64,000 nt of DNA from an uncultured delta proteobacterium (lineage in GTDB: Bacteria; Desulfobacterota; Syntrophobacteria; Syntrophobacterales; Syntrophobacteraceae). A program made the translations under genes and the position numbers. The notes below the pieces were generated by a model. The model saw nothing but the letters and a program-made list of their open reading frames with translations. It ran no database searches and was not told the DNA's origin. The DNA lies in contig CAVOPT010000023.1 of NCBI GenBank assembly GCA_963698165.1, positions 25,704 through 89,703 on the forward strand. The letters run 5' to 3'. Each line of letters starts with the position of its first letter. Position 1 is the stretch's first letter. Of the stretch, positions 2,965 to 34,515 are shown piece by piece.

Positions 2965-2965
2965 A

Positions 2966-4486: not shown

Positions 4487-4543
4487 CCTGTAGCATAGGG
4501 CCTTGTGCCCGTTCCTAACGCCCACGAGGGGCTATGCTACAGG
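4487..4543. repeat. hairpin-forming copy of the gcccacgaggggcta-type intergenic element
   Basis: cctgtagcatag (4487-4498) is the exact reverse complement of ctatgctacagg (4532-4543). The enclosed agggccttgtgcc...gcccacgaggggctatgctac closely resembles agggccttgtccc...gcccacgaggggctagcctac at 34217-34259. Confidence 0.65.
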
Positions 4544-15094: not shown

Positions 15095-15215
15095 CGGGCC
15101 TCGGCGGTCCAATGGGCGCCCTTTAGGGCATGCGCAGGGAAGGGGCTCTTCGCCACATGACAAGAGGAAGAGACACTTGGCGGATGAACGTGACGGGTTT
15201 TCAAGGAGGAGCGAC

Positions 15216-19900: not shown

Positions 19901-19957
19901 GGCGTCATTTTCATGGGGACTTCCAGCGAAGGAGCACTCTGTTTCGAATCGACCTGA
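16919..19957 (+). CDS. response-regulator-like protein fused to a PPDK_N (ATP-grasp) domain, copy 2
   Basis: 1012 aa, collinear with 12077..15094 along the whole length. Shared blocks include ILLVSTLYDACIMEEDGRL.ERIINEYRGL, GVRVILFVEDSP, NEEHKLLTMRARPKILVAE, GKGSLGGK.RGLVF, VRSSSLLED and EPSQGSHFFHNITTLGI. ATG with GGGAGGA upstream. Confidence 0.8.
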   Translation: MTGHTSITGPTCTTANLAPSVDEFDPRFTIFHELMREKVQEILLVSTLYDACIMEEDGRLAERIINEYRGLSLSQPPRLNWASSAEEALRCLHHKRFDMVITMRRLADMDVYAFGEELKKRNPQLPVILFTHTAPDPRCTPVRVKRPGIDRTFIWSGNTDLIIALVKSVEDQMNVGHDIEMAGVRVILFVEDSPIYLSTLLPVLYREVMQQTQAVMEQGLNEEHKLLTMRARPKILVAEDFEQATQLYELYLPYLLGVISDVRFPRNGELDDDAGVNFLSRVKREQPDIPLLLTSSEPANAERALQIPAMFINKNSPSLHTEVRSFLTGHLGFGDFIFRLPDGREIARVSNMHSFEKTLPTIPRESFYYHWSRNDFSRWLFARSEIILASKLRPATDKDFSGDVESMRRFIISNIHERRIRRQEGLVASFDSGDFDLDTDFFKIGKGSLGGKARGLVFISNMLRRHAALRENYPGVRVTFPRTLIITTEGFDALMEENGLEDLWETTLNDGEIARLFMDARFPGWIEEKLAVYLGHVHHPLAVRSSSLLEDNQNQPYAGLYRTLMLPNNHPDPAVRLEQLVTTVKLIYASTFYRAPRAFALRTSQGAEKEKMAIIIQRLIGKRQGDYFYPAISGVAQSQNYYPISPMKTEDGVAHIAVGLGKTVMAGEKALRFCPRYPHVLPQFSSVEDILRNAQRTFYALKMTHEEFAPDAHEECTLEKREIEDAEAEEPVRILSSIYRPEEHCIVDGSMGEGHRIVTFAQVLKYKLLPLPELLSDILETAREGMGCPVEIEFSVNLGSPEDARSELSLVQVRPMASEEAIDGVEISSGEISGAFCYSAHALGNGRKKGMTDILYVKPDVFDPSRMPQIAREIGEMNSVIFQQGRTYLLVGPGRWGSGDRWLGIPVGWADISGVGAIVETTDPQLKAEPSQGSHFFHNITTLGISYIAVNDKEGDFLDWNWLRSLPLAGETTHVAHVHLSDPFVVKLDGKKSLGVIFMGTSSEGALCFEST

Positions 19958-20025
19958 AGCGGTTTCAGCGAAACGGCGGAGAAGAGTCTGCTGTTGTTAT
20001 CGGACGCAATTCTGGAGGGCATGAA

Positions 20026-21357
20026 ATGATAGACGAGATCATGGGCATTGTGATGGCGAGGGACCCTTACGAGAAGGAATTCCATCAGGCGGTGAGAGAA
20101 GTTGTCGAGTCGATCCAGCCTGTAATGGAGGCCAATCCGCGATATCGGCAGGCGAAGATCCTGGAGAGGATCACGGAGCCGGAGCGGGTGATCATGTTCC
20201 GGGTGCCCTGGATGGATGATCAGGGCAATGTTCAGGTCAACCGGGGATACCGCATTCAGATGAGCAGCGCCATCGGGCCGTACAAGGGGGGGATTCGCTT
20301 TCACCCTTCGGTCACCTTGAGCACCCTCAAGTTTCTCGGTTTCGAGCAGACCTTCAAGAACGCTCTGACCACTCTGCCCATGGGCGGAGGCAAGGGCGGC
20401 TCCGACTTCAATCCCAAGGGCAAATCGGACAATGAGGTGATGCGTTTCTGCCACAGCTTCATGCTGGAGCTCTTCCGGCACATCGGCCCCGACACGGACG
20501 TTCCCGCGGGCGATTTGGGAGTGGGGAAGCGGGAGGTCGGATATCTCTTCGGAATGTACAAGAAGCTCCACAACGAATTCACCGGTGTATTCACCGGAAA
20601 GGGCCTCAGTTGGGGCGGAAGCCTCATTCGCCCCGAGGCGACCGGGTACGGCGTGGTCTACTTCCTGGAGGAAATGCTGGCGACCCGTGGTGACACCCTT
20701 GCGGGAAAGACCGTGGCCATCTCGGGGTACGGAAACGTGGGGACCTACGTGGTTGAAAAGGTGAACCAGCTCGGTGGAAAGGTGATCACCCTGGCCGACG
20801 AGTTTGGGTACGCCTTGGATCCTGATGGAATCAAGGGCGAGAAGCTGGAGTACATGGAGAAGCTCTGGACGGTGTACCGCAAATCGGCCAAGGAGTATGC
20901 CGACAAGTTCGGCTGCGAGTGGGTGCCCGATAAACGCCCCTGGGAAGTCAAATGCGACATTGCCATTCCCACTGCCATGGAGAACGAACTGAACGGGGAA
21001 AATGCCAGGACGCTCGTGCAGAACGGGTGCAAGGTGGTCGTTGAGGCCGCCAATATGCCGTGCACTCCGGAGGCTGTGCACGAGTTCCATGCCAGTGGCA
21101 TTCCTTTTGCCCCGGGAAAGGCGGCCAATGCAGGTGGAGTGGCCACCTCAGGGCTCGAAATGACCCAGAACAGCATGCGACTCAGCTGGACGAGCGAGGA
21201 AGTAGACGCTCGCCTGAGAATCATCATGAAAACGATTCATAACAGCTGTCTTGATGCGGCAGCGCAATACGGTTCCCCGGGCAACTATGTCAAGGGCGCC
21301 AACATTGCCGGGTTCACCAAGGTGGTTGATGCCATGATGGACCAGGGTCTGGTGTGA
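20026..21357 (+). CDS. gdhA: NADP-type glutamate dehydrogenase, copy 2
   Basis: 443 aa, with the same GdhA hallmarks (GYRIQMSSAIGPYKGGIRFHP, LPMGGGKGGSDFNPKGKS). Clearly a paralog of 15216..16565, diverged at both the protein and DNA level. Confidence 0.92.
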   Translation: MIDEIMGIVMARDPYEKEFHQAVREVVESIQPVMEANPRYRQAKILERITEPERVIMFRVPWMDDQGNVQVNRGYRIQMSSAIGPYKGGIRFHPSVTLSTLKFLGFEQTFKNALTTLPMGGGKGGSDFNPKGKSDNEVMRFCHSFMLELFRHIGPDTDVPAGDLGVGKREVGYLFGMYKKLHNEFTGVFTGKGLSWGGSLIRPEATGYGVVYFLEEMLATRGDTLAGKTVAISGYGNVGTYVVEKVNQLGGKVITLADEFGYALDPDGIKGEKLEYMEKLWTVYRKSAKEYADKFGCEWVPDKRPWEVKCDIAIPTAMENELNGENARTLVQNGCKVVVEAANMPCTPEAVHEFHASGIPFAPGKAANAGGVATSGLEMTQNSMRLSWTSEEVDARLRIIMKTIHNSCLDAAAQYGSPGNYVKGANIAGFTKVVDAMMDQGLV

Positions 21358-21535
21358 GCCCGCGATCCGAAGAGTTCTTTACGGATTTTCCCTCCCACGT
21401 GGAATGGAAAACCGCAAGGATAGTTCATTCAGGTGAATCGATGGAAGGAATCACCTGATTCTGGATGGATGAGAGAAGTTGTGTTTTCGACAAGCAATCG
21501 AAGTGGAAAGAGAAAGGAGATCAGTCGTGAGCAAA

Positions 21536-23257
21536 ATGAAGATGACCCCCAGTGAGGCATTGGTTGAAACCATGGCGGCGGAAGGCGTGAAGAATGTCTT
21601 CGGGATCGTGGGATCCGCATTCATGGATGCACTGGATATTTTCCCGTCGGCAGGCATCCGTTTCATCCCCGTGGCACACGAACAGGCAGCCTGCCACGCC
21701 GCTGACGGACTGGCCCGGGTGACGGGAAAGCCCCAGTGCTGCATCGCTCAAAACGGCCCCGGCGCTGCAAACTTTGTGTCGGCCATGGTGGCGGCATTCT
21801 GGGCCCACTCCCCTGTCGTCGCCCTCACGCCCGAAACCGGATCCAAGGGAATCGGGACCGGCGGATTTCAGGAACTGGACCAAATGGCCATGTTCCAGAA
21901 TCAGACCGTGTACCAGGTGAGGGTCAATCGCCCCGACCGCATGTCGGAGCTTGCCAGGCGCGCGTTCTACATGGCCAAGAACCTCAATGGCCCGACCCAG
22001 CTGAACATCCCTCGGGACTACTTCTACGGGGAGCTCGAGGATGAGATCTACACCACCATGACGGTCTCCCGGGGCATCGGGTCCAAGGAGTCCCTGGAGG
22101 AAGCCGCCAGGCTCCTGGCCAACGCGAAATACCCGGTCATCCTGTCCGGCGGCGGAGTGTCCCAGGCCAACGCGCTGGAAGAGGTCAAGGCTCTCGCCGA
22201 GTACCTGAGCGCGCCCGTTGTCAACAGCTACCTCCACAATGACACCTTTCCCCACAATCACCCTCTCGCCACGGGGCCCATCGGCTACTGCGGGTCCAAG
22301 GCGGCCATGCGCACCATCGCCAAGGCGGACGTCGTCGTTGCCTTAGGATCCCGCATGGGGCCGTTCGGGACCCTGCCCCAGTACGACATGGCCTACTGGC
22401 CCGAGAAGGCCAAGCTGATCCAGGTGGATGTGGATGTGACCGTTCTGGGTCTGAGCAAGAAGGTGGACGTGGCGTGCTGCGCCGATGTGAAGGAGTACAC
22501 GGCGGAGCTCCTCAAGGCCGTCAAGGCCTTGAAGCCCGCGCTTGCGCCCAATAAGAAGCGCCTCGCGGACGTGGAAAAGGAAAAGAAGGCCTGGGGCGAT
22601 GAGCTGGAAGGGTGGTCCACTTCCACCAACAAGCTCATGCATCCCCGCCGCTTCCTGCGGGAGCTTTCCCTCGCCATTCCGGAGGGAAGCATCATCTCCA
22701 CGGACATCGGGAACAACTCCTCCATGTGCAACGCATACTTCAGGTTCAGCGGAGTTCGCCAGCACATTTCCGCTCTTTCCTGGGGCAACTGCGGTTTTGC
22801 ATACGGTGCGGCCATGGGAGCCAAGATCGGCAAGCCGGACACCCCTGTCTTCGCCTTCCAGGGAGACGGCGCCTACGGGATCAGCGGCATCGCCGAAGTG
22901 ATGACGGCAGTGCGTGAAAACATCCCGGTCATCGCCATCGTGGCCAACAACCTGGAGTGGGGTGCGGAGAAGAAAAACCAGATCGACTATTACAACAACC
23001 GGTTCATCGGGGCCAATCTGCGGGAAAACCCCGACTATGCGAAGCTCGCTGACGTCATGGGAGCCAAGGGCTACAAGGTCGAGGACTATCGGGATGTGCA
23101 GGATGTCGTGCGAGACGCCGTGGCATCCGGGAAGCCTTGTGTCATCAACGCCATGATCGAGGGCGGTGAAAATGTACTCGCGGAACCGTTCCGCCGCGAT
23201 GCCCTCAAGAAAGCGTGGCGTTTGCTGCCGAAGTACAAGCATCTCAACGTGGAATAG
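21536..23257 (+). CDS. xsc: thiamine-diphosphate enzyme, best read as sulfoacetaldehyde acetyltransferase (Xsc)
   Basis: N-terminus MKMTPSEALVETMAAEGVKNVFGIVGSAFMDALDIFPSAGIRFIPVAHEQ..AQNGPG..NFV...TPETGSKGIGTGGFQELDQMAMF...NIPRDYF follows my memory of Xsc sequences (MKMT.EEA...FGI.GSA.M...D.FP.AGI.F...HE...GQGGFQE.DQM...N.PRDFW) better than acetolactate synthase. ThDP motif GDGAYG...NN. Start at ATG 21536, with GTG 21527 also possible. Confidence 0.7.
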   Translation: MKMTPSEALVETMAAEGVKNVFGIVGSAFMDALDIFPSAGIRFIPVAHEQAACHAADGLARVTGKPQCCIAQNGPGAANFVSAMVAAFWAHSPVVALTPETGSKGIGTGGFQELDQMAMFQNQTVYQVRVNRPDRMSELARRAFYMAKNLNGPTQLNIPRDYFYGELEDEIYTTMTVSRGIGSKESLEEAARLLANAKYPVILSGGGVSQANALEEVKALAEYLSAPVVNSYLHNDTFPHNHPLATGPIGYCGSKAAMRTIAKADVVVALGSRMGPFGTLPQYDMAYWPEKAKLIQVDVDVTVLGLSKKVDVACCADVKEYTAELLKAVKALKPALAPNKKRLADVEKEKKAWGDELEGWSTSTNKLMHPRRFLRELSLAIPEGSIISTDIGNNSSMCNAYFRFSGVRQHISALSWGNCGFAYGAAMGAKIGKPDTPVFAFQGDGAYGISGIAEVMTAVRENIPVIAIVANNLEWGAEKKNQIDYYNNRFIGANLRENPDYAKLADVMGAKGYKVEDYRDVQDVVRDAVASGKPCVINAMIEGGENVLAEPFRRDALKKAWRLLPKYKHLNVE

Positions 23258-23320
23258 TGCTAATCATCATCCGCATGCGAAGGTATCGTTTGAACGGCGC
23301 ATGCAGGATTGGAGGTTTCC

Positions 23321-24688
23321 ATGATCGATCTCAAGAACATTCCCTCATCCAAAGAGGCCCTCGATTCCTACGAGGTAGAAAACCTTTTCCATTCCTGGGG
23401 TTATCAGCCGTCACAGGCTCCCCTGCGGGTGGTCAGCGCCAAGGGTGTGCGGTTCAAGACCGAAGACGGAAGGGAACGCCTGGATTTCAGCTCCTGCTTC
23501 GTGAGCCACAGCATAGGCCATCAGGACCAGCGGGTCGTGGATGCGATTTGCGAGCAGGCAAAATCCCTGACTTCATTTGCCCCGAATTTTTCAACCAAGC
23601 CCAGGGCTCTTTTGGCAAAAATGCTCGCCGAGGTCACCCCTGGCGATCTTTCCCGCACCTTCATTTCCCTTGGAGGCACGGAAGCCAACGAAGCCGCGGT
23701 GAAAATCTGCCACCAGTATACCGGCAAGAGGAAGATGCTGACCCGCTACAGGAGCTACCACGGCGGCACGGCCACTTCCATGACCCTTTCCGCGGGAGAT
23801 GCCAGAAGCTGGGCGCAGGTCCTGGGGGGGACGGAGTGGGTCTCGGTTCCTCAACCCTATTGCTATCGGTGCATGTTCGGGCAGAACTACCCCGAATGTG
23901 GTCTGCAGTGCGTGAAATACGTGGACGAAGTGATCGAGCTCGAGGGGGGCGGCGAGAAGGTTGCCGGCATCATCTTTGAGCCCGTGACCGGGGCCAATGG
24001 GATCATCGTGCCGCCTCCGGAATACTTTCCACGCCTCAAGGAGGTTTGCGACAAGTGGGGCACGCTGATGGTTGCCGATGAGGTGATGACCGGGTTCGGG
24101 CGCACTGGAAAGTGGTTCGCCATGGATCACTGGGGGGTTGTGCCCGACATCATGACCCTGGCGAAGGGGGCAACCTGCGGATATCTGCCCCTGGGCATGA
24201 CGGTTGTCCGCAAGCACATCGCGGACCGCTTCAAGGAACAGTTCTTCTCACACGGGGCCACTTACGCAGGACACGCCCTGTGCTGCGCGGCGGCGGTGAG
24301 GGTGATCCAGATATACCAGGAAGACAATCTTATCGAGAACTCCGAGAAGATGGGCAAGTACCTCCTGGAGAAGGCGATGGAGCTCAAGGAAAAACATCCG
24401 TGCATCGGGGATGTGCGGGGCCTCGGATTGTTCGTGGGCTTGGAGCTGGTCAAGAACCGCAAGACACGGGAGCCCATCATCCCCGTGGGGGCGAAGATTC
24501 GCCCCGGTCTGAATCCCAAGCTCGAAGTTGCCAAGAAGATAGGCGAACTGGGAATGATCGCCATGGCGGCAAACCCGGGCAATGTCATTGCCATGGCGCC
24601 TCCTCTCATCATCAAGAAGGACGAGATCGACGAAGGCGTCGCCATCATGGACAAGGCTCTGGAAGTCGCTGACAAGTATGTAGAATAA
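23321..24688 (+). CDS. class-III (omega) pyridoxal-phosphate aminotransferase, candidate taurine:2-oxoacid aminotransferase
   Basis: About 455 aa. GGTEANEAAVKI, YHGGT, ADEVMTGFGRTGKWFA and TLAKG (PLP lysine) are class-III aminotransferase motifs. ATG 23321 with GGAGG 5 nt upstream. The substrate assignment is contextual only. Confidence 0.8.
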   Translation: MIDLKNIPSSKEALDSYEVENLFHSWGYQPSQAPLRVVSAKGVRFKTEDGRERLDFSSCFVSHSIGHQDQRVVDAICEQAKSLTSFAPNFSTKPRALLAKMLAEVTPGDLSRTFISLGGTEANEAAVKICHQYTGKRKMLTRYRSYHGGTATSMTLSAGDARSWAQVLGGTEWVSVPQPYCYRCMFGQNYPECGLQCVKYVDEVIELEGGGEKVAGIIFEPVTGANGIIVPPPEYFPRLKEVCDKWGTLMVADEVMTGFGRTGKWFAMDHWGVVPDIMTLAKGATCGYLPLGMTVVRKHIADRFKEQFFSHGATYAGHALCCAAAVRVIQIYQEDNLIENSEKMGKYLLEKAMELKEKHPCIGDVRGLGLFVGLELVKNRKTREPIIPVGAKIRPGLNPKLEVAKKIGELGMIAMAANPGNVIAMAPPLIIKKDEIDEGVAIMDKALEVADKYVE

Positions 24689-24770
24689 GCATAGATCGCC
24701 AAAGATGCCCGCGGGCATGCAGTGTCCGAGATCCGTTCCCTGGACGCTGAGCGACAAGGCAGGGCCACCT

Positions 24771-24992
24771 TCCCTCGCCCCTTCCCTTTGGAGAGGGGGC
24801 CAGGGGAGGAAGGACTGGCAAACCACACGTGGGCGGCTTAGGGGTATACGGTTCACTTAAGAGGGTCTCATATTCAGTTCCCCTCCCTTTGGCGGGAGGG
24901 GTCAGGGGAGGGGGTTCATCTCCTTCGTCTTTCACCCTCCCCCAACCCCTCCCATCGAGGGAGGGGAGTTCTAATCACGTTAAGTGAACAGC
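24771..24992. repeat. cluster of three GC-rich palindromic units (ccctccc-ttt-gg.gggaggg type) partly bracketed by a 10-bp inverted repeat
   Basis: Units lie at about 24771-24812 (ccttccctttggagagggggccagggga), 24879-24916 (cccctccctttggcgggaggggtcaggggaggggg) and 24936-24968 (cccctcccatcgagggaggggag). gttcacttaa (24852-24861) and ttaagtgaac (24980-24989) are inverted repeats. The cluster sits just after the aminotransferase stop. Confidence 0.6.
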
Positions 24993-25076
24993 ATTGGGTT
25001 TAGGACCTGAATCAGACAAAACCTGCACAGCCCGCGTTAACGGAAAAGATCCACCGAGGTTAAGGAAAATACGACA

Positions 25077-25550
25077 ATGGGATACAAAAAGATTCTCGTG
25101 GCCATGAGCAGAGCATGGGCTGAACCGGTGGTCTTCCAGGAGGCCGCCAGCCTGGCTCAGGAACAGGGCGCTCAACTGTTTCTCTTCCATTGTCTTGTCC
25201 CGGGGACGGTCGCTGAAATGGAAGAAAGCATCGGCACACTGGCGGAGCTCGAAGGATCTGATTCTCAGAGGGTTTTGGGCGAAAGACAGGGGACTGAGAT
25301 CAAACAGGCCCATGCCTGGTTGGATGGTTTCGTGAAAGAGGCCGAGGAGAGGCACATCGCGGCCCAAGCCGTCGCCGAAGAGGGTGAGCCCGGGGCCCGC
25401 ATCTGCGATCTGGCGACTCGATGGAAAGCCGATTTGGTGGTCATTGGAAAAACAAGGCGAGGATACCTCGTGGAACGTCTTGCGGGAAGCATCGCGAGCC
25501 ATGTGATTCATCGTTGTCCATGTTCGGTCCTTTTGGTCCACCAGGGGTGA
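25077..25550 (+). CDS. universal stress protein (UspA family)
   Basis: 157 aa. MGYKKILVAMS... and the C-terminal DLVVIGKTRRGYLVERLAGSIASHVIHRCPCSVLLV match the Usp ATP-binding-type signature. Confidence 0.8.
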   Translation: MGYKKILVAMSRAWAEPVVFQEAASLAQEQGAQLFLFHCLVPGTVAEMEESIGTLAELEGSDSQRVLGERQGTEIKQAHAWLDGFVKEAEERHIAAQAVAEEGEPGARICDLATRWKADLVVIGKTRRGYLVERLAGSIASHVIHRCPCSVLLVHQG

Positions 25551-25591
25551 GGCCCTATCAAATGGTGACAGGCATGGAGATGGAGGAACAG

Positions 25592-26350
25592 ATGGGAGAA
25601 AACGTGGAAGAGCGAACAACCAAAATCGAGGTGAAAAACCTCACCAAACGCTTCGGTGAACTCCTGGTCTTGAACGGCATATCCTTCAACGTTCAGAAGG
25701 GGGAATTCCTCAGCATCGTGGGGCCCACGGGATGCGGCAAGACAACGTTCCTCAACTGTCTGTCCAAGCTCATACCGACTTCGGAAGGGAACATCTTCAT
25801 CGATGGAGAAGAGGCCGACCCCAAGAAGCACAACATCTCCTTCGTATTCCAGGAGCCCACCTGCATGCCATGGAGGACGGTGAGGGAAAATGTCGCCTTT
25901 GGGATGGAGGTCAAGCAGTTTCCCAAAGAGAAGCTTGAAGAGAGGTTGAAGTACATTCTGGACCTGGTCGGCCTGACGGACACAGCGGATCTCTACCCCA
26001 ACCAGGTTTCAGCCAGCATGGAGCAGAGAATGGCGGTGGCCCGCGCATTCGCCGTGGACCCGGATCTCCTGCTCATGGACGAGCCCTACGGCCAATTGGA
26101 TGTCAAGCTGCGCTGTTACTTGGAGGACGAGCTTGTCCGCCTTTGGAAGGCTCTCAAGAGCACCGTCGTCTTCATTACCCACAATGTTGAAGAAGCGGTC
26201 TATGTGGCGGAGCGAATCCTCATCCTGAGCAACAAGCCCACCAGCATCAAGGCCGAGGTGAAGGTGGATCTTCCTCGCCCGAGGAGCCTCATTGACCCCA
26301 AGTTCGTGGAAATCAGAAAACACGTTACGGACCTGATCCGTTGGTGGTAA
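25592..26350 (+). CDS. ABC transporter ATP-binding protein (NitT/TauT family) with a degenerate signature motif
   Basis: Walker A GPTGCGKTT, Walker B LLLMDEPYGQLD, H-loop ITHN. The signature reads VSASMEQR instead of LSGGxxQR. I chose ATG 25592 (GGAGG 5 nt upstream). ATGs at 25562, 25574 and 25580 are alternatives, and the ORF-track start at 25421 overlaps usp. Confidence 0.8.
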   Translation: MGENVEERTTKIEVKNLTKRFGELLVLNGISFNVQKGEFLSIVGPTGCGKTTFLNCLSKLIPTSEGNIFIDGEEADPKKHNISFVFQEPTCMPWRTVRENVAFGMEVKQFPKEKLEERLKYILDLVGLTDTADLYPNQVSASMEQRMAVARAFAVDPDLLLMDEPYGQLDVKLRCYLEDELVRLWKALKSTVVFITHNVEEAVYVAERILILSNKPTSIKAEVKVDLPRPRSLIDPKFVEIRKHVTDLIRWW

Positions 26351-26513
26351 ATTCGCGGACCAGTGAGCAAGAAAGGCCATGGCCGCAGTCTACAGCGTTC
26401 GTTTGAAGGGAGGTGAAAAGGGCAAGGAGGGCGACCGGATTTGTGAAAGGAAGGCGGTTGATTTGGATCACCGGCAATGGAACCTCATGACATTGACATG
26501 AAGGAGCAGCAGA

Positions 26514-27584
26514 ATGAAGAAACTGGTTTTCTCCGGGATTTTGGTCCTTTCGGCTTTACTGGCGTTTGGAGCCCTTGGCCCCGCTCAGGCTCAGAAGCCT
26601 ATGGTGTTGAACCTGGCATGGCAGCCGGAGCACGAGACGTTCGCCGCGTGGTATGCGAAGGAAAAGGGATGGGACAAGGAAGAAGGGCTGGATTTCCAGC
26701 TGCATTTTTTTGATTCCGGAATGGCGCAAATGGAAGCCCTGCCTGCCAAGCAGTGGGTGATCGCCGGCATGGGCGGTGTCCCCGCCAACGTGGGTGCCCT
26801 CCGCTACGGCACGGTTTTGTTCGCCATCGGCAACGATGAGTCCGAGACCAACTGCGTGATGGTGCGCAAAGACAGCCCCATCCTCAAGACAAAGGGCTTC
26901 AACCCCAAATATCCGGAGGTCTTCGGAAGCCCCGAGACCATCAAGGGAAAGACCATCCTGGCCACGACGGTTTCCTCCGGTCATTTCGCCATGAGCAAGT
27001 GGCTCGAAGTTTTTGGGCTCAAGGACAGTGACGTCGTGCTCAAGAACATGGATCAGGCGCAGGCGGTGGCGGCCTTCGAGGCGGGCATCGGCGACGCCGT
27101 GGTGCTCTGGGCCCCCCATATCTACACCGGCCTTGGCAAAAGCTGGAAAATCGCCGCCAACACCAAGACCTCCGGTGGAGCTCAGCCCATCGTACTCATC
27201 GCGGAAAAGGAGTTCAGCGAGAAGAATCCCGAAATCATGGCCAAGTTCCTGCGCGTGTATCTGCGCAGCATCAACGCCATCAAGAAAGAGGGCGAGAAGC
27301 TGGTGCCCGAGTACAATAGGTTTTTCAAGGATTGGGCCGGTATGGACCTGAGCCCAGAATCCGCCAAGATGGACCTGCTGATGCACCCGGTGTTCACCCT
27401 GGAGGAGCAGATCAAGATGTTTGACAGCAGCGCCGGACCGAGTGATGTCCAAAAGTGGCAGCAGGCCATCCTGGACTTCTTCACCGCTCAGGGCAGGTTC
27501 AAGCCCGAAGAGAAGGAAAAGGTGATGAAGAGCGATTACATCACGGGCAAGTTCCTTAAGATGGTCAAAACACCCATTCCCTGA
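26514..27584 (+). CDS. ABC transporter periplasmic substrate-binding protein (NMT1/SsuA/TauA-like, NitT/TauT family)
   Basis: Signal peptide MKKLVFSGILVLSALLAFGALGPAQA. The length, the alternating pattern typical of aliphatic sulfonate/taurine-type binding proteins and its position inside an ABC operon support the call. Confidence 0.75.
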   Translation: MKKLVFSGILVLSALLAFGALGPAQAQKPMVLNLAWQPEHETFAAWYAKEKGWDKEEGLDFQLHFFDSGMAQMEALPAKQWVIAGMGGVPANVGALRYGTVLFAIGNDESETNCVMVRKDSPILKTKGFNPKYPEVFGSPETIKGKTILATTVSSGHFAMSKWLEVFGLKDSDVVLKNMDQAQAVAAFEAGIGDAVVLWAPHIYTGLGKSWKIAANTKTSGGAQPIVLIAEKEFSEKNPEIMAKFLRVYLRSINAIKKEGEKLVPEYNRFFKDWAGMDLSPESAKMDLLMHPVFTLEEQIKMFDSSAGPSDVQKWQQAILDFFTAQGRFKPEEKEKVMKSDYITGKFLKMVKTPIP

Positions 27585-27826
27585 TGCGGTCGAGGCCTCG
27601 AGACGTGTGAGGGCTGCATGACCTGAGATTGAAATTCAAGAAAGAGAGAGGGAGGGCCGGACAATCTTCCGGTCCTCCCGGCAAGGCCGGACAAGGTATC
27701 GAACAGGGGGGACCCTCTGGCTCCGGAGTCAGGGCCGAGTGGGGCATGGAAAGCGAATGAGATGTTGGCACCCGTTTTAAGGATTTCGTTTCGACACTTT
27801 TGAACCATTCGGCTGGGAGACGAACC

Positions 27827-28621
27827 ATGGCCTATGAGGAAGTGAAGGTCAAAAAGCCTTTGATGTTAAGAATCCTGCCTGTGGCGAGCCTCTTGCTCTT
27901 CCTGGTGGGCTGGCAGCTGATCGTGGATATGGAAATCGTCCCAAGCAGTATGCTTGCCTCACCCACGCAGGTTTATGAACTCTTTAAGGTCAAGCTCACC
28001 GAGGCCAATCCGGACGGCGCGGTCTTGGCAAAGCATGCCTGGACAAGCGTACAGGAAGCCTTCACCGGCTACATTCTTGCCCTCCTCTTTGGGATCCCTC
28101 TTGGCCTGCTGATGGGCTGGTTTGTGGTGGTGGAAGGATTGACAAGGCCAATTTTCGAAATGATTCGGCCAATTCCTCCCATTGCGTGGATTCCTTTGAC
28201 CATTTTCTGGTTTGGCATCGGCATTACCGGGAAGGTGTTCATCATCTGGATAGCGGGAATCGTTCCCTGCGTGATCAATTCCTACGTGGGAGTGAGAATG
28301 ACCAACCCCACCCTGATCCAGATGGCCCGCACCTACGGCGCCACGGACTGGCAGATTTTCACGAAGCTCTGCGTCCCATCCGCCCTCCCCATGGTCTTCG
28401 GGGCCCTTCAGATCGCCCTTGCCTACTGCTGGACCAACCTGGTGGCTGCGGAGCTCCTGGCGGCCGACAGCGGTCTGGGCTTTCTCATCACCATGGGCCG
28501 CCGCCTGGCCATGCCTGACATGGTGGTTTTGGGCATGGTCATGGTGGGCCTCACCGGCGCGATCATCGGCATCGTTGTGGACTATTTCGAAAAGAAGCTG
28601 CTCGCGGGAATAAGGAGGTAA
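27827..28621 (+). CDS. ABC transporter permease 1 (NitT/TauT family)
   Basis: Multi-TM protein with the EAA-like loop MARTYGATDWQIFTKLCVPSALPMVFGALQIAL, typical of BPD-type permeases of SsuC/TauC type. ATG at 27827. Confidence 0.85.
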   Translation: MAYEEVKVKKPLMLRILPVASLLLFLVGWQLIVDMEIVPSSMLASPTQVYELFKVKLTEANPDGAVLAKHAWTSVQEAFTGYILALLFGIPLGLLMGWFVVVEGLTRPIFEMIRPIPPIAWIPLTIFWFGIGITGKVFIIWIAGIVPCVINSYVGVRMTNPTLIQMARTYGATDWQIFTKLCVPSALPMVFGALQIALAYCWTNLVAAELLAADSGLGFLITMGRRLAMPDMVVLGMVMVGLTGAIIGIVVDYFEKKLLAGIRR

Positions 28622-28627
28622 CCAAAA

Positions 28628-29467
28628 GTGTCTACAGTTGCCAATGAAGTACAGGTTAGAGTGAAGGAGAAGCGGCCGCTTTCGCTGAAGATCGTGCTCA
28701 AGAACCAATATTTTCTCTACGGCGTTTCCATCCTGGCTTTCTTTCTGGCGTGGGACTTCGCGGCCACAACGGAGATTTTGAAGGGGGGGTTGGCCCGCCC
28801 TCACCAGGTTCTGCTGCAGTCGACCTCCATGATAACGGACCGGCTGGCCGGCCTGTCGCTATGGGGACATATCTGGGCAAGCACGCAGCGGATTTTGATC
28901 GGCTTTACAGTGGCGGCCGTCGTAGCCGTGCCCCTTGGTCTCCTGATGGCCCTCAACCCTTACATCAATGCTGTGGTCAAGCCCGTGTTCGATCTGTTCA
29001 AACCCATGCCCCCAATTGCCTGGATCTCCATATCCATTCTCTGGTTCGGCATTGGGGAGACCTCCAAGGTGTTCATCATCGTGATCGGCACCTTTGTGCC
29101 CTGCCTTCTCAATTCATACAACGGAGTCCGGCTCATCGAACCGCAGCTCTATGACGTGGTGCGCGTGCTTGGGGGCAATCGCAGGGACGAGATCCTTCAG
29201 GTGTGCTTCCCCGCTGCTTTCCCCGCCATCTTCGCAGGGCTGCAAATCTCCCTGAGCATTGCGTGGACCTGTGTTTTGGCTGCCGAACTGGTGAGCTCCC
29301 GCTCCGGGCTCGGGTTCATCATCTTCCAGGGAATGACCCTCTCAAAGCCGGCGATGGTGCTGAGCGGCATGATCCTCATTGCATTGGTTGCCTGGCTCAC
29401 CACTCTCCTGGTCAGCGGGCTTGAAAAAGTGCTTTGTCCCTGGAAACGGGAAGTCCTTGGGCTGTAA
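28628..29467 (+). CDS. ABC transporter permease 2 (NitT/TauT family)
   Basis: GTG start with AAGGAGG upstream. EAA-like loop VVRVLGGNRRDEILQVCFPAAFPAIFAGLQISL. Paralogous to the preceding permease. Confidence 0.85.
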   Translation: MSTVANEVQVRVKEKRPLSLKIVLKNQYFLYGVSILAFFLAWDFAATTEILKGGLARPHQVLLQSTSMITDRLAGLSLWGHIWASTQRILIGFTVAAVVAVPLGLLMALNPYINAVVKPVFDLFKPMPPIAWISISILWFGIGETSKVFIIVIGTFVPCLLNSYNGVRLIEPQLYDVVRVLGGNRRDEILQVCFPAAFPAIFAGLQISLSIAWTCVLAAELVSSRSGLGFIIFQGMTLSKPAMVLSGMILIALVAWLTTLLVSGLEKVLCPWKREVLGL

Positions 29468-29544
29468 ACCGGGTCTCCAGCCCGTGCGAGTGCGAGAAGG
29501 GCCAGAGGCTGAGACCTTGGTCGGGTAGAAAGGAATTCAGCGCC

Positions 29545-30315
29545 GTGGGAACAAATAGCGAATACAAGATCGTGTGCGAAAACATCAGCAAGACGTTCAT
29601 CCAGAAGGGGACCCAGCAGGTCCACGTGCTCAAGGATGTGAGCGTCAGCGTCAAGGAGAACGAGTTCGTCGTGATCCTGGGACCCGGGCAATCGGGGAAG
29701 AGTACCCTGCTGAGAATCATCGCCGGCCTGGAAACCCCCACCAAAGGCACGGTGGTGCTGGACGGCCGGGAGGTGACCGGGCCCGGGCCGGACAGGGGTC
29801 TTGTCTTTCAGAGCTACATGCTCTTCCCGTGGAAAACCGTCATGGGGAACGTGGAGTTGGGACTTAAGCTGAGAGGGATCGACAAGACGGAGAGGCAGGA
29901 GATTGCGAACCATTACATTCAACTCGTCGGGCTGCAGGGCTTTGAGAAGCACTACCCCCACCAGTTGAGCGGCGGCATGAAGCAGCGGGTCGGGATTGCG
30001 CGGGCTTACGCCAACAGTCCCGAGGTCATGCTCCTCGATGAGCCGTTCGGGCAACTGGATGCCCAGACCCGCTACTTCATGGAAAAGGAAATAGTGCGCA
30101 TCTGGGAGGCGGAAAAGAGAACGGTCCTGTTTGTGACGAACAACATCGACGAAGCCATCTATGTCGGCGACCGCATCATTTCCCTCAAAGGAAAGCTGCC
30201 GGGGACCATGCACGAGGAGTACCAGGTGGATCTGCCCAGGCCAAGAGAGCACACGGAGATGAAATTCCTGGAGCTCAGGCATGAGATCACGGAGGCGTCG
30301 GAACTGACCCTCTAG
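29545..30315 (+). CDS. ABC transporter ATP-binding protein 2 (NitT/TauT family), canonical motifs
   Basis: Walker A GPGQSGKST, signature LSGGMKQR, Walker B MLLDEPFGQLD. GTG 29545 was chosen because the ORF-track start (29434) overlaps the permease. The start is uncertain. Confidence 0.8.
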   Translation: MGTNSEYKIVCENISKTFIQKGTQQVHVLKDVSVSVKENEFVVILGPGQSGKSTLLRIIAGLETPTKGTVVLDGREVTGPGPDRGLVFQSYMLFPWKTVMGNVELGLKLRGIDKTERQEIANHYIQLVGLQGFEKHYPHQLSGGMKQRVGIARAYANSPEVMLLDEPFGQLDAQTRYFMEKEIVRIWEAEKRTVLFVTNNIDEAIYVGDRIISLKGKLPGTMHEEYQVDLPRPREHTEMKFLELRHEITEASELTL

Positions 30316-30392
30316 AGGAACCCGCTCCGTCGAAGGGAATGGCGCTTGGCCGGGTTCAGGGTCCGTTGGAGTACCCAGGAAAGTTCACCGAA

Positions 30393-31049
30393 ATGATCAA
30401 TCAGAAATCGCTTCGTGAGCAAGTCTACGAATTCCTGCGGGCGGAATTGCACAAGGGCAAACTCGCGCCGGGGGCATCCATAAACCTGACGCAGGTGAGT
30501 GAGAGCCTGGGAATCAGCAAGACCCCCCTTCGCGATGCCCTCATTCAGCTTGAAGTTGAAGGATTCGTCACCATATCCCCAAGACGCGGAATCTTTGTCA
30601 ACCGTCTGGACCTGGATGACATCAAGCACTGCTATGAGATCATCGGAGCCCTGGAGGCCGCCGTGCTTATTTCTGTGTTCGATAAGCTCAGGAACGAGGG
30701 CCTCGATGAAATGAAACGGTTGAACCGCGAAATCTCCGCGGCCCTCGACCGGGAGGATTACGAGGCTTATTACGAGCTCAACATCCGGTTTCACCACCTG
30801 TTTGTCGACATGTCGGAGAACGAGTCCCTCAAGCGCATCATCATGCCCATGAAACAGCGCCTCTACGATTTCCCCTGTAGAGGCTACATCAGGAGCTGGG
30901 AGCAGCGCAACTGCAGGGACCACGAGGCTTTGATCGAGGCCATCGAGAGAGGGGACAGGGATGCCGCCGCAGCCATCTGGCGCGACCGGCACTGGTCCTT
31001 CTCCGTGCAGGAGCCGTACATAAAGAAATTTTACCTATTTGAGGAATGA
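30393..31049 (+). CDS. GntR-family transcriptional regulator with FCD (FadR C-terminal) domain
   Basis: The N-terminal wHTH LREQVYEFLRAELHKGKLAPGASINLTQVSESLGISKTPLRDALIQLEVEGFV is followed by a helical FCD-like domain with H residues (FHHLF, HEALIEAI). ATG 30393, or the upstream ATG 30339. Confidence 0.8.
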   Translation: MINQKSLREQVYEFLRAELHKGKLAPGASINLTQVSESLGISKTPLRDALIQLEVEGFVTISPRRGIFVNRLDLDDIKHCYEIIGALEAAVLISVFDKLRNEGLDEMKRLNREISAALDREDYEAYYELNIRFHHLFVDMSENESLKRIIMPMKQRLYDFPCRGYIRSWEQRNCRDHEALIEAIERGDRDAAAAIWRDRHWSFSVQEPYIKKFYLFEE

Positions 31050-31280
31050 GGTATCCGGCCAACCCTGGGGGACGCTTTGGCCGACTGGGAGTTACCATGA
31101 GGGTTCTGCCGCATGGCGGCCATTTGCCGGGTGCATTAGAATGGGGGCAGGGCCCATAAGGTCCTGCCTTTCCCGTTGGAATCCCGCGAAGACGCGCGAG
31201 CGGTTCCCGCATCCTGCTCCTGGAATGTGCCTGAAGGGGCATGAGGGTTTATTCTTACTTGTGGAAACCAGGGGACAAGG

Positions 31281-32906
31281 GTGAAGGTCGATCAAATCCA
31301 TGTGAACGGAGTGGTCCACACCATGGACCGGGGGAATTCGACCGTCGAAGGGTTCGCCGTGGCGGGAGGGCGCTTCTGCTTCGTGGGCTCAAGCGAGGAG
31401 GCGATGCGCCTGTCCGGCCCCGGGACGGAAGTTCACGATCTCGGGGGCAGGACGGTCCTCCCCGGCTTCATCGAAACCCACAGCCATCTGTCGCTCCACG
31501 CCATAACCCTGCTCCAGGCCAATTGCAGGACGCCTCCCAATGCGACCATCGATGACGTCAAGGCCGGGCTCAGGGAATTCGCTGCAGGCAAGGAACCGGG
31601 TCAATGGATCCGGGGCTGGGGCTTCGACGACACCCTCATTGAGGAAAAGAGGCACCTGACGCGGTGGGATCTGGACGAGGCGGTGCCGCTCCATCCCGTC
31701 TATGTCTCCCACACCAGCGGACACCTGGCTTACGTGAACTCTGCGGCCCTGAGGATGGCGGGCATAGGCCCGGCCACCCCCCAGCCCGAGGGTGGGGAAA
31801 TCCACATGGACTCGCGGGGAGAGCCCACGGGCCTTCTGGCGGAGGAGCCCGCCCAGCGGCTTGTTCTGGAGCTCATTCCTCCCTACCCGGTTCCCGCGCT
31901 CAGGGAGTCAATGGCGGAATCCATGGGTGTGTTTCACCGGGCCGGGATCACGAGCATCCATGATGCGGCCATCGGGTATTTCCGGCAGCACAAGCCCATT
32001 TTGCAGGCCTATCGTGAGATGGAAACCTCGGGCAATCTTCACATTCGTGTGTACTTGACCATCGTGGAGGAGGTCTACAGGAACCTCCTCGAAGTGGGGC
32101 TTGGAACGGGCTTTGGTTCGGAGTATCTTAAGCTCGGGGCCGTGAAGCTCTTCCAGGACGGTTCCATCCAGGCCCGAACGGCCGCTCTCGCGGAACCCTA
32201 CCTGAACATGGAGGATAATTCCGGGAACCTCATCCTGTCCCAGGATGCACTGGATGCCCTGGTCATGCGCTATCACGAACGGGGAGTCCAGGTGGCCGTT
32301 CACGCCAACGGGGACCGGGCCATCGAGTCCGTCCTGCATGCCGTGGAACGGGCACAAAACGCCCGTTCCGGCCGGGACAGCCGTCACATGGTCATCCACT
32401 GCCAGTTGGCGAGGAAGAGCCACATCGAGCGGATGAAGGAGGCCGGCATCATCCCGAGCTACTTCGTGAATCACGTGTACTACTGGGGAGACCGCCATGT
32501 GTCGCTGTTTCTGGGACCGGAGAGAGCGAAGCGCCTTGACCCCTTGAATACGACGGTGGGTGCCGGACTCCCTTTCACGCTCCATTCCGATCTGCCCGTG
32601 ACACCGGTGGACCCGCTCTTTTCCATGCACTGCGCCATGAACCGGCTGACCAGGAACGGCCATGTCCTCGGCCCCGAGGAGAGAATTCATCCTCTGGAGG
32701 CCCTGAAAGCATACTCGGTGTATGCGGCGGCCTGCAGCTTCGAGGAGCGCCTCAAGGGGTCCATCGAAAAAGGTAAACTGGCGGACTTCGTCGTCCTCTC
32801 GGAGAGCCCCTTGAGGATTCGCCCCGAGAGCATAAAGGATATCAGGGTATTGAAGACGGTGGTGGGAGGCAGGACCGTTTTTCCCCAAGACGGTCTCCCG
32901 CTCTGA
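31281..32906 (+). CDS. metal-dependent amidohydrolase (Amidohydro_3 / YtcJ-like)
   Basis: 541 aa. PGFIETHSHL, KLFQDGS, VAVHANGD and HSDLPV are the metal-ligand motifs of the YtcJ-like amidohydrolase subgroup. GTG start at 31281. Confidence 0.8.
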   Translation: MKVDQIHVNGVVHTMDRGNSTVEGFAVAGGRFCFVGSSEEAMRLSGPGTEVHDLGGRTVLPGFIETHSHLSLHAITLLQANCRTPPNATIDDVKAGLREFAAGKEPGQWIRGWGFDDTLIEEKRHLTRWDLDEAVPLHPVYVSHTSGHLAYVNSAALRMAGIGPATPQPEGGEIHMDSRGEPTGLLAEEPAQRLVLELIPPYPVPALRESMAESMGVFHRAGITSIHDAAIGYFRQHKPILQAYREMETSGNLHIRVYLTIVEEVYRNLLEVGLGTGFGSEYLKLGAVKLFQDGSIQARTAALAEPYLNMEDNSGNLILSQDALDALVMRYHERGVQVAVHANGDRAIESVLHAVERAQNARSGRDSRHMVIHCQLARKSHIERMKEAGIIPSYFVNHVYYWGDRHVSLFLGPERAKRLDPLNTTVGAGLPFTLHSDLPVTPVDPLFSMHCAMNRLTRNGHVLGPEERIHPLEALKAYSVYAAACSFEERLKGSIEKGKLADFVVLSESPLRIRPESIKDIRVLKTVVGGRTVFPQDGLPL

Positions 32907-32933
32907 AAACTCAGAGGGAAGGCGGACATTTTC

Positions 32934-34178
32934 ATGATCGTGCTCGTTATCAACGCGGGAAGTTCATCGGTGAAGTTCACCCTGTTCACAAACGACGGGG
33001 ACCTAGAAGTCATGGCTCACGGCATCGTAGAGCGGATCGGCCTCCGCGGGACGCTGCTCCGGTGCAAGAATGCGAGGGGCGACGGAATTGAGCGGGAAGT
33101 GGCCGTTGCGGACACGACCCAGGCCGTCGAAGTGATTCTCGCTTTCCTGTCGGGCAAAGATTTTGGGGTGGTCCGGAGGCTCGAGGAGATCACGGCAGTG
33201 GGACACAGGGTGGTCCACGGAGGGGAGACGGTCACCCGGTCCGTCCTCATTGACGACACCGTGAAGGCGATCATCCGGGAATGCGCCGAACTGGCCCCCC
33301 TCCACAATCCGCCCAACCTGGCGGGCATCGAGGCCTGCGAAAAGCTCATTCCCGGAGCCCCTCAGGTCGCGGTCATGGACACGGCATTCCATGCCACCAT
33401 CCCCCCCCATGCCTATTTGTACGGGATTCCATACCGGTATTACCGGGACTTCAAAATCCGGCGGTATGGTTTTCACGGGATCAGCCACAAATACGTGTCG
33501 GAGGAGGCCGCAAGGCACCTGGGTGTTCCCCTCGGGGATTTGAAAATCATCACGTGCCACCTGGGAAACGGCTGCAGCATGACGGCGGTGGACGGGGGGG
33601 TGAGCGTGGACACGAGCCTGGGTTTCACTCCCTTGGAAGGGCTCGTCATGGGCACCCGGTGTGGAGACATCGACCCCGCCATCATCACGTACCTCCTGGA
33701 CCGGAAGCTTGCGGAACCCGGGGACCTCGACCGGATCCTGAATAAGGAAAGCGGCCTCCTGGGGCTTGCGGAGATCGGGAGCAGCGACATGCGGGACGTG
33801 GCCGCCGCCGCCTCGAGTGGGAACAGGCAGGCGGAAATCGCGGTGCGGGTCTTTTGCTACCGGATCAGGAAATACATCGGTGCCTTTGCCGCGGCGATGG
33901 GAGGGCTCGATGTCCTGGTCTTCACAGCGGGGATCGGCGAAAATTCGCCCTCCGTGCGACGACTCGCCTGCGAAGGGCTTGGCGGGGTGAACGGCCTCGG
34001 CATCACCATCGATGCCGCGAAAAACGAAGCGCCGGCCGGGGGCGTGCGAGAGATCCAGGGGGGAGGCAGGGTGAAGGTTCTCGTGGTCCCGACCCATGAG
34101 GAGTTGGAGATCGCCAGGCAGACGGTGGCGGTCCTTGGGAGCGAGCTCCTGTCGGGGCAGCGGCGTGGGGAACCCTGA
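32934..34178 (+). CDS. ackA: acetate kinase
   Basis: MIVLVINAGSSSVKFTLF, GHRVVHGG, FDTAFH-like MDTAFHATIP, GFHGISH, HLGNGCS and TAGIGENS are canonical AckA motifs. Confidence 0.92.
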   Translation: MIVLVINAGSSSVKFTLFTNDGDLEVMAHGIVERIGLRGTLLRCKNARGDGIEREVAVADTTQAVEVILAFLSGKDFGVVRRLEEITAVGHRVVHGGETVTRSVLIDDTVKAIIRECAELAPLHNPPNLAGIEACEKLIPGAPQVAVMDTAFHATIPPHAYLYGIPYRYYRDFKIRRYGFHGISHKYVSEEAARHLGVPLGDLKIITCHLGNGCSMTAVDGGVSVDTSLGFTPLEGLVMGTRCGDIDPAIITYLLDRKLAEPGDLDRILNKESGLLGLAEIGSSDMRDVAAAASSGNRQAEIAVRVFCYRIRKYIGAFAAAMGGLDVLVFTAGIGENSPSVRRLACEGLGGVNGLGITIDAAKNEAPAGGVREIQGGGRVKVLVVPTHEELEIARQTVAVLGSELLSGQRRGEP

Positions 34179-34211: not shown

Positions 34212-34326
34212 TATACAAGGGCCTTGTCCCACCCTGAGGCCCACGAGGGGCTAGCCTACGCGCCCACGAGGGGCCATGCTGCGCGCCCGCGGGGCCATGC
34301 TGCGCGCCCGCGAGGCCATGCCACAG
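34212..34326. repeat. intergenic element plus four tandem 21-23-nt units (gcccacgaggggc.a.gc...gc)
   Basis: Units at 34239-34261, 34262-34284, 34285-34305 and 34306-34326. These are gcccacgaggggctagcctacgc, gcccacgaggggccatgctgcgc, gcccgcggggccatgctgcgc and gcccgcgaggccatgccacag. They are preceded by agggccttgtccc, as in the copy at 4497-4543. Confidence 0.7.
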
Positions 34327-34369
34327 AACGCGTCTCGGTCACGAATCAGCCGACCCGCTTCCCCGCATG

Positions 34370-34398
34370 TTGACAGGCTGTTTTGATTTCCCTACAAT
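34370..34398 (+). promoter_or_regulatory. near-consensus sigma70 promoter upstream of ilvB
   Basis: TTGACA (34370-34375), 17-nt spacer, TACAAT (34393-34398), about 120 nt upstream of the ilvB ATG. Confidence 0.55.
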
Positions 34399-34515
34399 CA
34401 TTGATCTTCTTCAGCCAATCTCTCGATTGCACTGGGTTCTTTCCGACTGGGAGAGAGACCGGCGGGGAGATGGCTGTTCCTGCATTCAACATTTCAGACT
34501 TTGAAGGTTTTTCCC

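Follow-up and report, generated by a model that had tools for sequence, protein, structure and literature searches.

A predicted taurine island joining Xsc to acetate kinase in an uncultured Syntrophobacteraceae-like member of the Desulfobacterota

We analysed a 64-kb stretch of contig CAVOPT010000023.1 (assembly GCA_963698165.1) from an uncultured bacterium of the Syntrophobacteraceae, hereafter called the window, for which an earlier reading of the DNA letters (the original prediction) had proposed an island for the breakdown of taurine and sulfoacetaldehyde. All coordinates are positions in this window, and the island occupies 20026-34178 on the + strand. The eleven gene types that had been named as a run on this strand were all found there, uninterrupted (Table 1), and the reading of the run as a taurine/sulfoacetaldehyde island is supported by our comparison of its predicted proteins with curated families and related genomes. 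At its core stand a thiamine diphosphate (ThDP) enzyme of the Xsc type, a class-III aminotransferase resembling taurine:2-oxoglutarate aminotransferase (Toa) and, at the right end, an acetate kinase.

Table 1. Genes of the island and the RR/PPDK_N gene on its left side, with the family models that they match.
Feature	Position	Strand	Family match and remarks
RR/PPDK_N protein, copy 2	16919..19957	+	Pfam PF00072 + PF01326
Glutamate dehydrogenase gdhA, copy 2	20026..21357	+	NCBIfam NF006929
Xsc, three-domain ThDP enzyme	21536..23257	+	TIGR03457, NF005713; alternative start GTG at 21527
Class-III aminotransferase, Toa-like	open reading frame 23309-24688, likely ATG at 23321	+	PF00202
Usp (universal stress protein)	25077..25550	+	PF00582
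ABC ATPase 1	25562..26350, start approximate	+	PF00005
Binding protein, periplasmic, SsuA/TauA/NMT1 type	26514..27584	+	SsuA_fam; Sec signal peptide
ABC permease 1	about 27827..28621	+	PF00528
ABC permease 2	28628..29467	+	PF00528
ABC ATPase 2	about 29545..30315, GTG start approximate	+	PF00005
GntR/FCD transcription regulator	30339..31049	+	PF00392 + PF07729
Amidohydro_3 (YtcJ-like) metallohydrolase, 541 aa	31281..32906	+	PF07969
Acetate kinase ackA	32934..34178	+	TIGR00016

The ThDP enzyme, which comprises TPP_enzyme_N, M and C domains, scores 756 bits against the equivalog model TIGR03457 (cut-off 676.4) and 857 bits against NF005713 (cut-off 620). The true ilvB downstream (34501-36237) shows the reversed pattern, reaching just 349 and 353 bits on these two Xsc models. 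Reading the enzyme of the island as an acetolactate synthase was rejected, as the models of that family give at most 341 bits against cut-offs above 538. The check for a non-Xsc clade, for which the original prediction had named acetolactate synthase as an example, thus came out negative, and by sequence the enzyme is an Xsc, as proposed. Furthermore, it is 42–52% identical over 98–99% of its length to annotated xsc products from plasmid and chromid records, with 52.5% identity to that of Rhodococcus, about 51% to the Cupriavidus/Burkholderia type and 42% to the alphaproteobacterial type of Sinorhizobium and Cereibacter; Caballeronia is also among the genera compared. A PDB search with the protein returned no chain named Xsc, its best solved relatives being other ThDP enzymes.

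Scanning one genome per species, we found 321 relatives of this Xsc and analysed the best 80 loci (Xsc identity 73–94%; denoted by L numbers), onto which the island proteins were mapped by tblastn; counts of direct adjacency are limited to the 65–66 loci with enough flanking sequence. Nearly all of the 80 come from metagenome-assembled genomes (MAGs) of the Desulfobacterota type, to which three cultured strains add (Desulfatibacillum alkenivorans, Desulfatitalea alkaliphila and Desulfosarcina widdelii). Nearest are MAGs of the Syntrophobacteraceae, with 94% Xsc identity in L001. Loci L004 and L010 carry RR/PPDK_N, gdh, xsc, the aminotransferase gene, usp, five ABC genes, gntR and ackA in this order, and L002, L009 and L045 have the same left part with an aldehyde dehydrogenase gene between the aminotransferase gene and usp. 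In L081, a locus found through the amidohydrolase query, the order is xsc, aminotransferase, a short Amidohydro_3 gene, usp, five ABC genes, gntR, Amidohydro_3 and ackA. The arrangement exceeds chance, since its order recurs in these six independent MAGs (L002, L004, L009, L010, L045 and L081). It is thus in related Desulfobacterota that gdh and ackA travel with the island, and the proposed linkage of both genes to xsc is borne out by synteny.

The acetate kinase gene closes the island. Its product reaches 474 bits on TIGR00016 (cut-off 293), and the gene starts 27 bp past the amidohydrolase gene; the gap to the following ilvB measures 322 bp and contains a near-consensus sigma-70 promoter (TTGACA-17-TACAAT, 34370-34398) that is ilvB's own. 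Elsewhere, ackA directly follows xsc in 15 of the 66 loci, some of which are quite different sulfonate clusters, and it lies on the same strand as xsc in 26 of all 80. In L004, L010 and L081, too, it is the terminal gene. The island has a mosaic right end: in L004 and L010, gntR and ackA are 64–66% identical to those of the window and most other island genes 82–97% (Usp 51–56%), while L081 has 82% for gntR and 87% for ackA and also shares the amidohydrolase with the window. What follows the terminal ackA is ilvB in the window, a reverse-strand gdh in L004 and L010, and an unrelated reverse-strand open reading frame in L081. That ackA is terminal in two diverged versions and before three different downstream neighbours therefore speaks for function rather than accident. 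As judged from curated family models and gene context, the presence, linkage and joint conservation of Xsc and AckA are supported. The view of the xsc and ackA pairing as unusual was overstated; it is outdated by the documented route of Taurinivorans muris (PMC10507020), and the pairing is common among the Desulfobacterota loci.

The best PDB match of the aminotransferase, in favour of the original prediction, is a Toa, that of Bifidobacterium kashiwanohense (6JIX; E 2e-88, 300 bits), followed by a runner-up at 265 bits. The identity to 6JIX is just 37%, and for this reason the substrate and acceptor specificity given here are predictions. Across the related loci, the aminotransferases fall into two clades, namely the window type, with 83% identity to the L083 enzyme and 281 bits against Toa, and the type of L066, L069 and L089, with 35–37% identity to the window enzyme and 158–211 bits against Toa. 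The window type is encoded directly downstream of xsc in 8 of the 66 loci, and gdh precedes it in all five loci where gdh adjoins xsc. An alanine dehydrogenase gene adjoins the second type in L089, and such a gene directly follows xsc in L049 and L061. Although the numbers are small, these contexts match the known pairings of Tpa with Ald and of Toa with Gdh.

The glutamate dehydrogenase of the island scores 729 bits on NF006929, the model for the NADP-specific enzyme (cut-off 536). Its gene forms a pair with an RR/PPDK_N gene that is present in two tandem copies in the window, at 12077-16565 and 16919-21357, where the RR/PPDK_N proteins (about 1000 aa each, copy 1 at 12077-15094) share 61% and the two dehydrogenases 67% protein identity. 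RR/PPDK_N copy 2 is 96% identical to a Syntrophobacteraceae entry (P0121). In the related loci, xsc is directly preceded by gdh in 5 of 65 cases, all 5 with the window-type aminotransferase and, in L002, L004, L009, L010 and L045, with RR/PPDK_N upstream of the gdh-xsc pair; gdh is also found in L001. As gdh is always paired with an RR/PPDK_N gene, it is synteny that ties it to taurine. The conserved adjacency in one lineage, together with the Toa-like aminotransferase, suggests such a tie, and the role of RR/PPDK_N is possibly regulatory. This family is very large in Desulfobacterales (of 8,000 candidate proteins scored, 7,561 reach E<=1e-20), and next to its distant members in L093 and L094 stands a gene for a radical SAM enzyme, not gdh.

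All five components of the importer belong to the nitrate/sulfonate/taurine ABC superfamily, with two different permeases and two different ATPases. The binding protein, whose signal peptide is of the typical Sec type ending in AQA, has SsuA_fam as its best family (97 bits, below the cut-off of 163.5), reaches 43–51 bits on the TauA models (cut-off 304) and has E. coli TauA as its sole PDB match (3e-11). TauC is the best NCBIfam match of permease 1 (141 bits) and gives 156 bits with permease 2 (cut-off 342), and the ATPases score 177–225 bits against TauB (cut-off 357), the upper value being that of ATPase 2. By these scores, the system is of the same superfamily as TauABC but not its orthologue. 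Since SsuA_fam is the best family and TauA the sole solved relative, the closest characterised relatives of the binding protein bind sulfonates, in line with the original prediction, and taurine or a small sulfonate is the predicted ligand. SaoA and SaoP, of a selenoprotein-associated transporter family, came up as best matches of the ABC proteins, but they lie below the cut-off and were judged uninformative. The open reading frame listed for ATPase 1 has its start at 25421, inside usp, and matches the family from about residue 66 onward, and homologues are about 250–262 aa long; the starts of both ATPases and of permease 1 were reset from family-match coordinates and homologue lengths. The position of usp ahead of the ABC genes is kept in L002, L004, L009, L010, L045, L066 and L081-L083, and that of gntR after them is likewise kept in related loci. 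The GntR/FCD protein is likely the local regulator of the island.

The Amidohydro_3 gene had been listed by the original prediction with its role left uninterpreted. Its product scores 378 bits against PF07969 and finds its best PDB match in 3ICJ (9e-44), its sole solved relatives being 3ICJ and 3IGH, both uncharacterised hydrolases. It keeps the binuclear-metal ligands H67, H69, K289, H341, H373 and D437, and as the translated sequence has no signal peptide, the enzyme should act in the cytoplasm. Residues S146, Q297, N343 and H398 align with S142, Q287, N333 and H389 of the Clostridium butyricum homologue; their mapping to the published sulfonate-binding residues Ser144, Gln290, Asn337 and His393 of the Beduini massiliensis enzyme is by offset only. 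Querying with homologues of 55–79% identity gave seven gene contexts, and five of these contain taurine genes (L081, L082, L083, L089 and L091; homologues of 56–79% identity). In L081, the neighbours are Xsc, aminotransferase and AckA. L082 lies on the same contig as L045 and continues its xsc-aminotransferase island with aldehyde dehydrogenase, Usp, five ABC components, GntR, EamA and the amidohydrolase. In L083 (1287-19193), a block of aminotransferase, Usp, five ABC components, GntR, (EamA) and Amidohydro_3 is followed by an Fe-alcohol dehydrogenase, with a PFL-like glycyl radical enzyme and a radical SAM activase nearby on the opposite strand. This block is apparently coupled to a SarD/IslAB-like desulfonation instead of Xsc and would resemble the SarD-IslAB route of Bilophila. 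L089 offers a peptide-type ABC importer, a Tpa-like aminotransferase and alanine dehydrogenase, and L091, from Chloroflexi, the series SBP_bac_5, amidohydrolase, Xsc, aminotransferase, GntR, Mem_trans and AckA. As separate evidence, a 58%-identical homologue is encoded directly upstream of xsc in L034 and L055. Altogether, the probable role of the enzyme is to free taurine from an N-acyl-taurine. The second, shorter Amidohydro_3 gene of L081 (1846-3366, between the aminotransferase gene and usp) shows, when aligned, no middle portion of the fold and an aberrant C-terminus; it may be a decayed copy.

We thus propose, with a probability of roughly 0.75, that the locus is a dissimilatory taurine island of anaerobic Syntrophobacteraceae-like Desulfobacterota that combines import, deamination, desulfonation and ATP formation. 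In this mechanism, the ABC importer with its binding protein would take up taurine, and the Toa-like aminotransferase would convert taurine and 2-oxoglutarate to sulfoacetaldehyde and glutamate. Gdh would regenerate 2-oxoglutarate, freeing ammonium and NAD(P)H. Xsc would then cleave sulfoacetaldehyde with phosphate to acetyl phosphate and sulfite, AckA would use acetyl phosphate and ADP to form acetate and ATP, and reduction of the sulfite would fall to a dissimilatory sulfite reductase whose genes lie beyond the window. The cytoplasmic Amidohydro_3 enzyme would add a second entry, in which an N-acyl-taurine yields taurine and a carboxylic acid.

Several observations weigh against this proposal. 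None of the five ABC components reaches the curated TauABC or SsuABC cut-offs, and at 37% identity of the aminotransferase to Toa, 2-oxoglutarate is a putative amino acceptor. The linkage of gdh to taurine could be inherited synteny, given its constant partner RR/PPDK_N, and in L034, L048 and L055 a window-type aminotransferase is found without gdh. The NADP-specific type of glutamate dehydrogenase is usually seen as assimilatory, and the match of gdh to it is a mild argument against a catabolic role. The 64-kb window holds no dissimilatory sulfite reductase. As for the amidohydrolase, the same putative sulfonate-binding residues occur in homologues that have no taurine context and hence do not discriminate. 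In L090 (6189-11503) and L092 (6279-11427), the genes for homologues of 55–56% identity are flanked by those of an MttB-family methyltransferase and a pterin-binding protein; an Amidohydro_1 gene stands upstream and taurine genes are missing, and this context limits the transfer of a taurine annotation. Finally, the closest full-length relatives, L004 and L010, are without the amidohydrolase gene, which is therefore dispensable.

Alternatively, the functional unit could consist only of xsc, the aminotransferase gene, the ABC genes and gntR, with gdh (as part of the RR/PPDK_N module) and a general ackA being neighbours by descent. Such a smaller unit would fit the second RR/PPDK_N-gdh pair, which stands in the window without xsc, the three loci that lack gdh despite a window-type aminotransferase, the match of gdh to the NADP-specific equivalog and the place of ackA at the island edge, beside the housekeeping genes ilvBNC. 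We nevertheless regard it as unlikely, given that five diverged loci, all with the Toa-like aminotransferase, have gdh immediately before xsc, and that ackA remains terminal in the window, L004/L010 and L081 while the genes downstream differ. Its place directly after xsc in 15 of 66 loci, including those quite different sulfonate clusters, also argues for a functional part of ackA, as do the gap of 27 bp to the amidohydrolase gene and the separate promoter of ilvB.

The substrate itself could be another 2-aminoethyl or sulfonate compound, such as hypotaurine, homotaurine, 2-aminoethylphosphonate or another alkanesulfonate, with an unrelated job for the amidohydrolase. The ABC and binding proteins are indeed far under the TauABC cut-offs, the ATPases and GntR weakly match phosphonate-related models (PhnT2, phnR_burk), the donor and acceptor specificity of the aminotransferase is unreadable from 37% identity, and two amidohydrolase homologues have MttB contexts. 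However, Xsc is specific for sulfoacetaldehyde and the equivalog threshold is passed, and the adjoining transaminase makes taurine the obvious amine precursor. Moreover, the same aminotransferase-Usp-ABC-GntR-amidohydrolase block occurs near Fe-alcohol dehydrogenase and glycyl-radical-enzyme/activase genes in L083, like the other known taurine route, and no phosphonatase or PhnW-type gene is among the scanned genes of the window, so that a different substrate appears improbable. Least probable of all, to the point of being remote, is a main role in scavenging nitrogen from taurine, as in B. kashiwanohense and C. butyricum. A Toa-type aminotransferase passes taurine nitrogen straight to glutamate and gdh is of the NADP type, as scavenging would have it, yet the scavenging systems reduce sulfoacetaldehyde to isethionate, which they excrete, whereas here Xsc would cleave the aldehyde. 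The island also has its own acetate kinase, and the combination of Xsc and AckA would conserve energy and yield a respirable electron acceptor.

Going beyond the dissimilatory island as such, we tentatively suggest that the series aminotransferase-Usp-ABC-GntR-Amidohydro_3, with its five ABC genes, may serve environmental Desulfobacterota as a portable 'taurine-conjugate front end', to which alternative back ends are attached (Xsc-AckA here, Fe-alcohol dehydrogenase and a glycyl radical enzyme in L083). The amidohydrolase clade might then be a non-gut branch of the recently described taurine-specific metallo-amidases acting on an N-acyl-taurine pool of anoxic sediments, groundwater or digesters, and RR/PPDK_N a dedicated controller of the glutamate/2-oxoglutarate shuttle. 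This extended scenario is possible, but we would give it well under even odds.

The related loci contain further genes. An aldehyde dehydrogenase of about 517 aa, which is not present in the window, directly follows the aminotransferase ahead of the Usp and ABC genes in L002 (8552-10102), L009 (13463-15022) and L045 (13414-14967), and in L066 (11810-13366) it follows xsc ahead of the same genes; it could convert sulfoacetaldehyde to sulfoacetate, or act on another aldehyde. Many Desulfobacterales have a different conserved cluster that ends in Xsc-AckA and is without an aminotransferase. In L018 (1-13047), it runs from an acetoacetate-decarboxylase-like gene through acyl-CoA dehydrogenase, MFS, a TauE sulfite exporter, TetR, a second ThDP enzyme (28–30% identity to IlvB), an SBF symporter, NAD epimerase/dehydratase and SDR to Xsc and AckA, and an ilvB-like ThDP gene lies 1–5 kb upstream of xsc in 23 of 47 loci. 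The cluster of the L018 type appears to be a so far undescribed pathway that turns a different sulfonate into sulfoacetaldehyde.

Around the island, the remaining scanned genes of the window are housekeeping genes (ilvBNC, psd, pssA, leuC, leuB, asd, cbiMQ, H+-PPase, ffh and trmD), and the statement of the original prediction that the window holds no sulfite reductase or exporter stands. The G+C content of the island (0.56–0.61) equals that of its flanks and thus gives no compositional signal of recent horizontal transfer. Rfam families have no match across the island, a promoter and terminator scan of it stayed at background level with the ilvB promoter as sole exception, and repeat searches yielded no shared operator motif. 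The 388-bp spacer between the aminotransferase gene and usp contains G+C-rich direct and inverted repeats of the CCCTCCC...GGGAGGG type at 24778-24966, with two copies of about 32 nt placed 102 nt apart and an inverted pair of 32 nt; the window holds no further copy of the motif, and Rfam gives no match. Within 34237-34398, a segment that includes the ilvB promoter, four tandem copies of a 21-23-nt unit (GCGCCCACGAGGGGCCATGCT-like) stand just upstream of that promoter. On the - strand, two neighbouring Amidohydro_1 genes (1606-4525) lie upstream of an HrpA-like helicase gene (5860-9825), with no link to the island seen.

How does the island compare with known systems? The Toa system of B. kashiwanohense (6JIX), whose aminotransferase is the best solved relative of the window enzyme (37% identity), reduces sulfoacetaldehyde to isethionate, with no cleavage by Xsc. 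In Desulfonispora thiosulfatigenes, acetyl phosphate is used for substrate-level phosphorylation. This organism ferments taurine anaerobically through Xsc (Denger et al. 2001; cited in PMC10507020) and is alike in having an oxygen-independent Xsc route in a strict anaerobe and unlike in being Gram-positive. Close in chemistry is Taurinivorans muris (Desulfovibrionaceae), for which respiration of taurine via Tpa-Ald-Xsc-AckA-Dsr has experimental support (PMC10507020). There too, in an anaerobic member of the Desulfobacterota, transamination gives sulfoacetaldehyde, Xsc forms sulfite and acetyl phosphate, and AckA forms ATP; sulfite serves as respiratory acceptor with DsrAB, whereas the window is without Dsr genes. 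T. muris relies on a pyruvate-dependent Tpa with alanine dehydrogenase and on TRAP transporters, in contrast to the Toa-like aminotransferase with Gdh, the five-gene ABC importer, GntR/FCD and Amidohydro_3 of the window; the island contains neither an alanine dehydrogenase nor a TRAP gene, and its aminotransferase falls in the clade that is not linked to alanine dehydrogenase. An Xsc-AckA-Dsr route has also been predicted from the genome of Desulfotomaculum ruminis (PMC10507020, PMC3569383), and a gene inventory of subsurface MAGs reports toa, xsc and dsr together (PMC12019592). The aerobic proteobacterial clusters comprise tauABC, tauXY or tpa, xsc and pta (R. pomeroyi, PMC4334477, PMC9870897; xsc of S. 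meliloti). They likewise desulfonate with Xsc and take up their substrate through an ABC system from the superfamily seen in the window, but in them xsc goes together with pta and acetyl-CoA enters aerobic metabolism, whereas no pta is found among the scanned genes of the 64-kb window.

For the amidohydrolase, two published systems are relevant. The metal-dependent bile salt hydrolases (mBSHs) described by Malarney et al. in a 2026 preprint are Amidohydro_3 enzymes and 3ICJ homologues specific for taurine-conjugated bile acids; their genes co-occur with those of Tpa/SarD, IslA or Xsc, they include a Thermodesulfobacteriota cluster with a verified Bilophila enzyme, and those tested did not use N-acetyltaurine (PMC13081988). 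The window enzyme is alike in PF07969 membership, closest solved structure (3ICJ), binuclear-metal ligands and co-occurrence with taurine genes, but it is just 33–34% identical to the gut-clade member of C. butyricum and comes from an environmental organism. Among the best 120 matches to this C. butyricum homologue, which are relatives from Ruthenibacterium, Oscillospiraceae and Clostridium, none is a named mBSH of Beduini, Turicibacter or Bilophila. In Ruegeria pomeroyi and Cupriavidus necator, N-acetyltaurine is handled by the cluster naaT-naaS-naaR-naaABB'CC', where NaaS is SPO0658 or H16_B0868 (PMC4334477). The logic is alike, an amidohydrolase freeing taurine from an amide beside an ABC importer, and the importer has one binding protein, two permeases and two ATPases, as in the window; unlike the island, the naa cluster has a LysR regulator and a metallochaperone. 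None of the four plasmid contexts of amidohydrolase homologues that we inspected by tblastn (Cupriavidus, Leisingera, Pseudosulfitobacter and C. butyricum) contains a naa-like cluster; the neighbourhoods are generic peptide-type or unrelated.

In summary, the island is an environmental variant of chemistry already documented in sulfide producers of the gut, and no new pathway. What sets it apart from the known systems is the Toa-like aminotransferase with Gdh, the five-gene ABC importer, the GntR/FCD regulator, the RR/PPDK_N neighbour and the taurine-linked amidohydrolase. Taurine and its conjugates, which are abundant among organosulfur compounds, feed sulfide production when they are broken down without oxygen, a process studied by experiment mainly in Desulfovibrionaceae of the gut. 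The island would supply candidates for an environmental N-acyl-taurine hydrolase and for the ligand of the transporter. Together with the 80 loci, it suggests that ATP-yielding Xsc-AckA modules occur in several wirings among free-living sulfate-reducer lineages (from genomes labelled Syntrophobacteraceae, Desulfarculia, Desulfobacterales and others). The known routes would be extended by one that joins Toa and Gdh to a dedicated ABC importer and an amidohydrolase linked to taurine.

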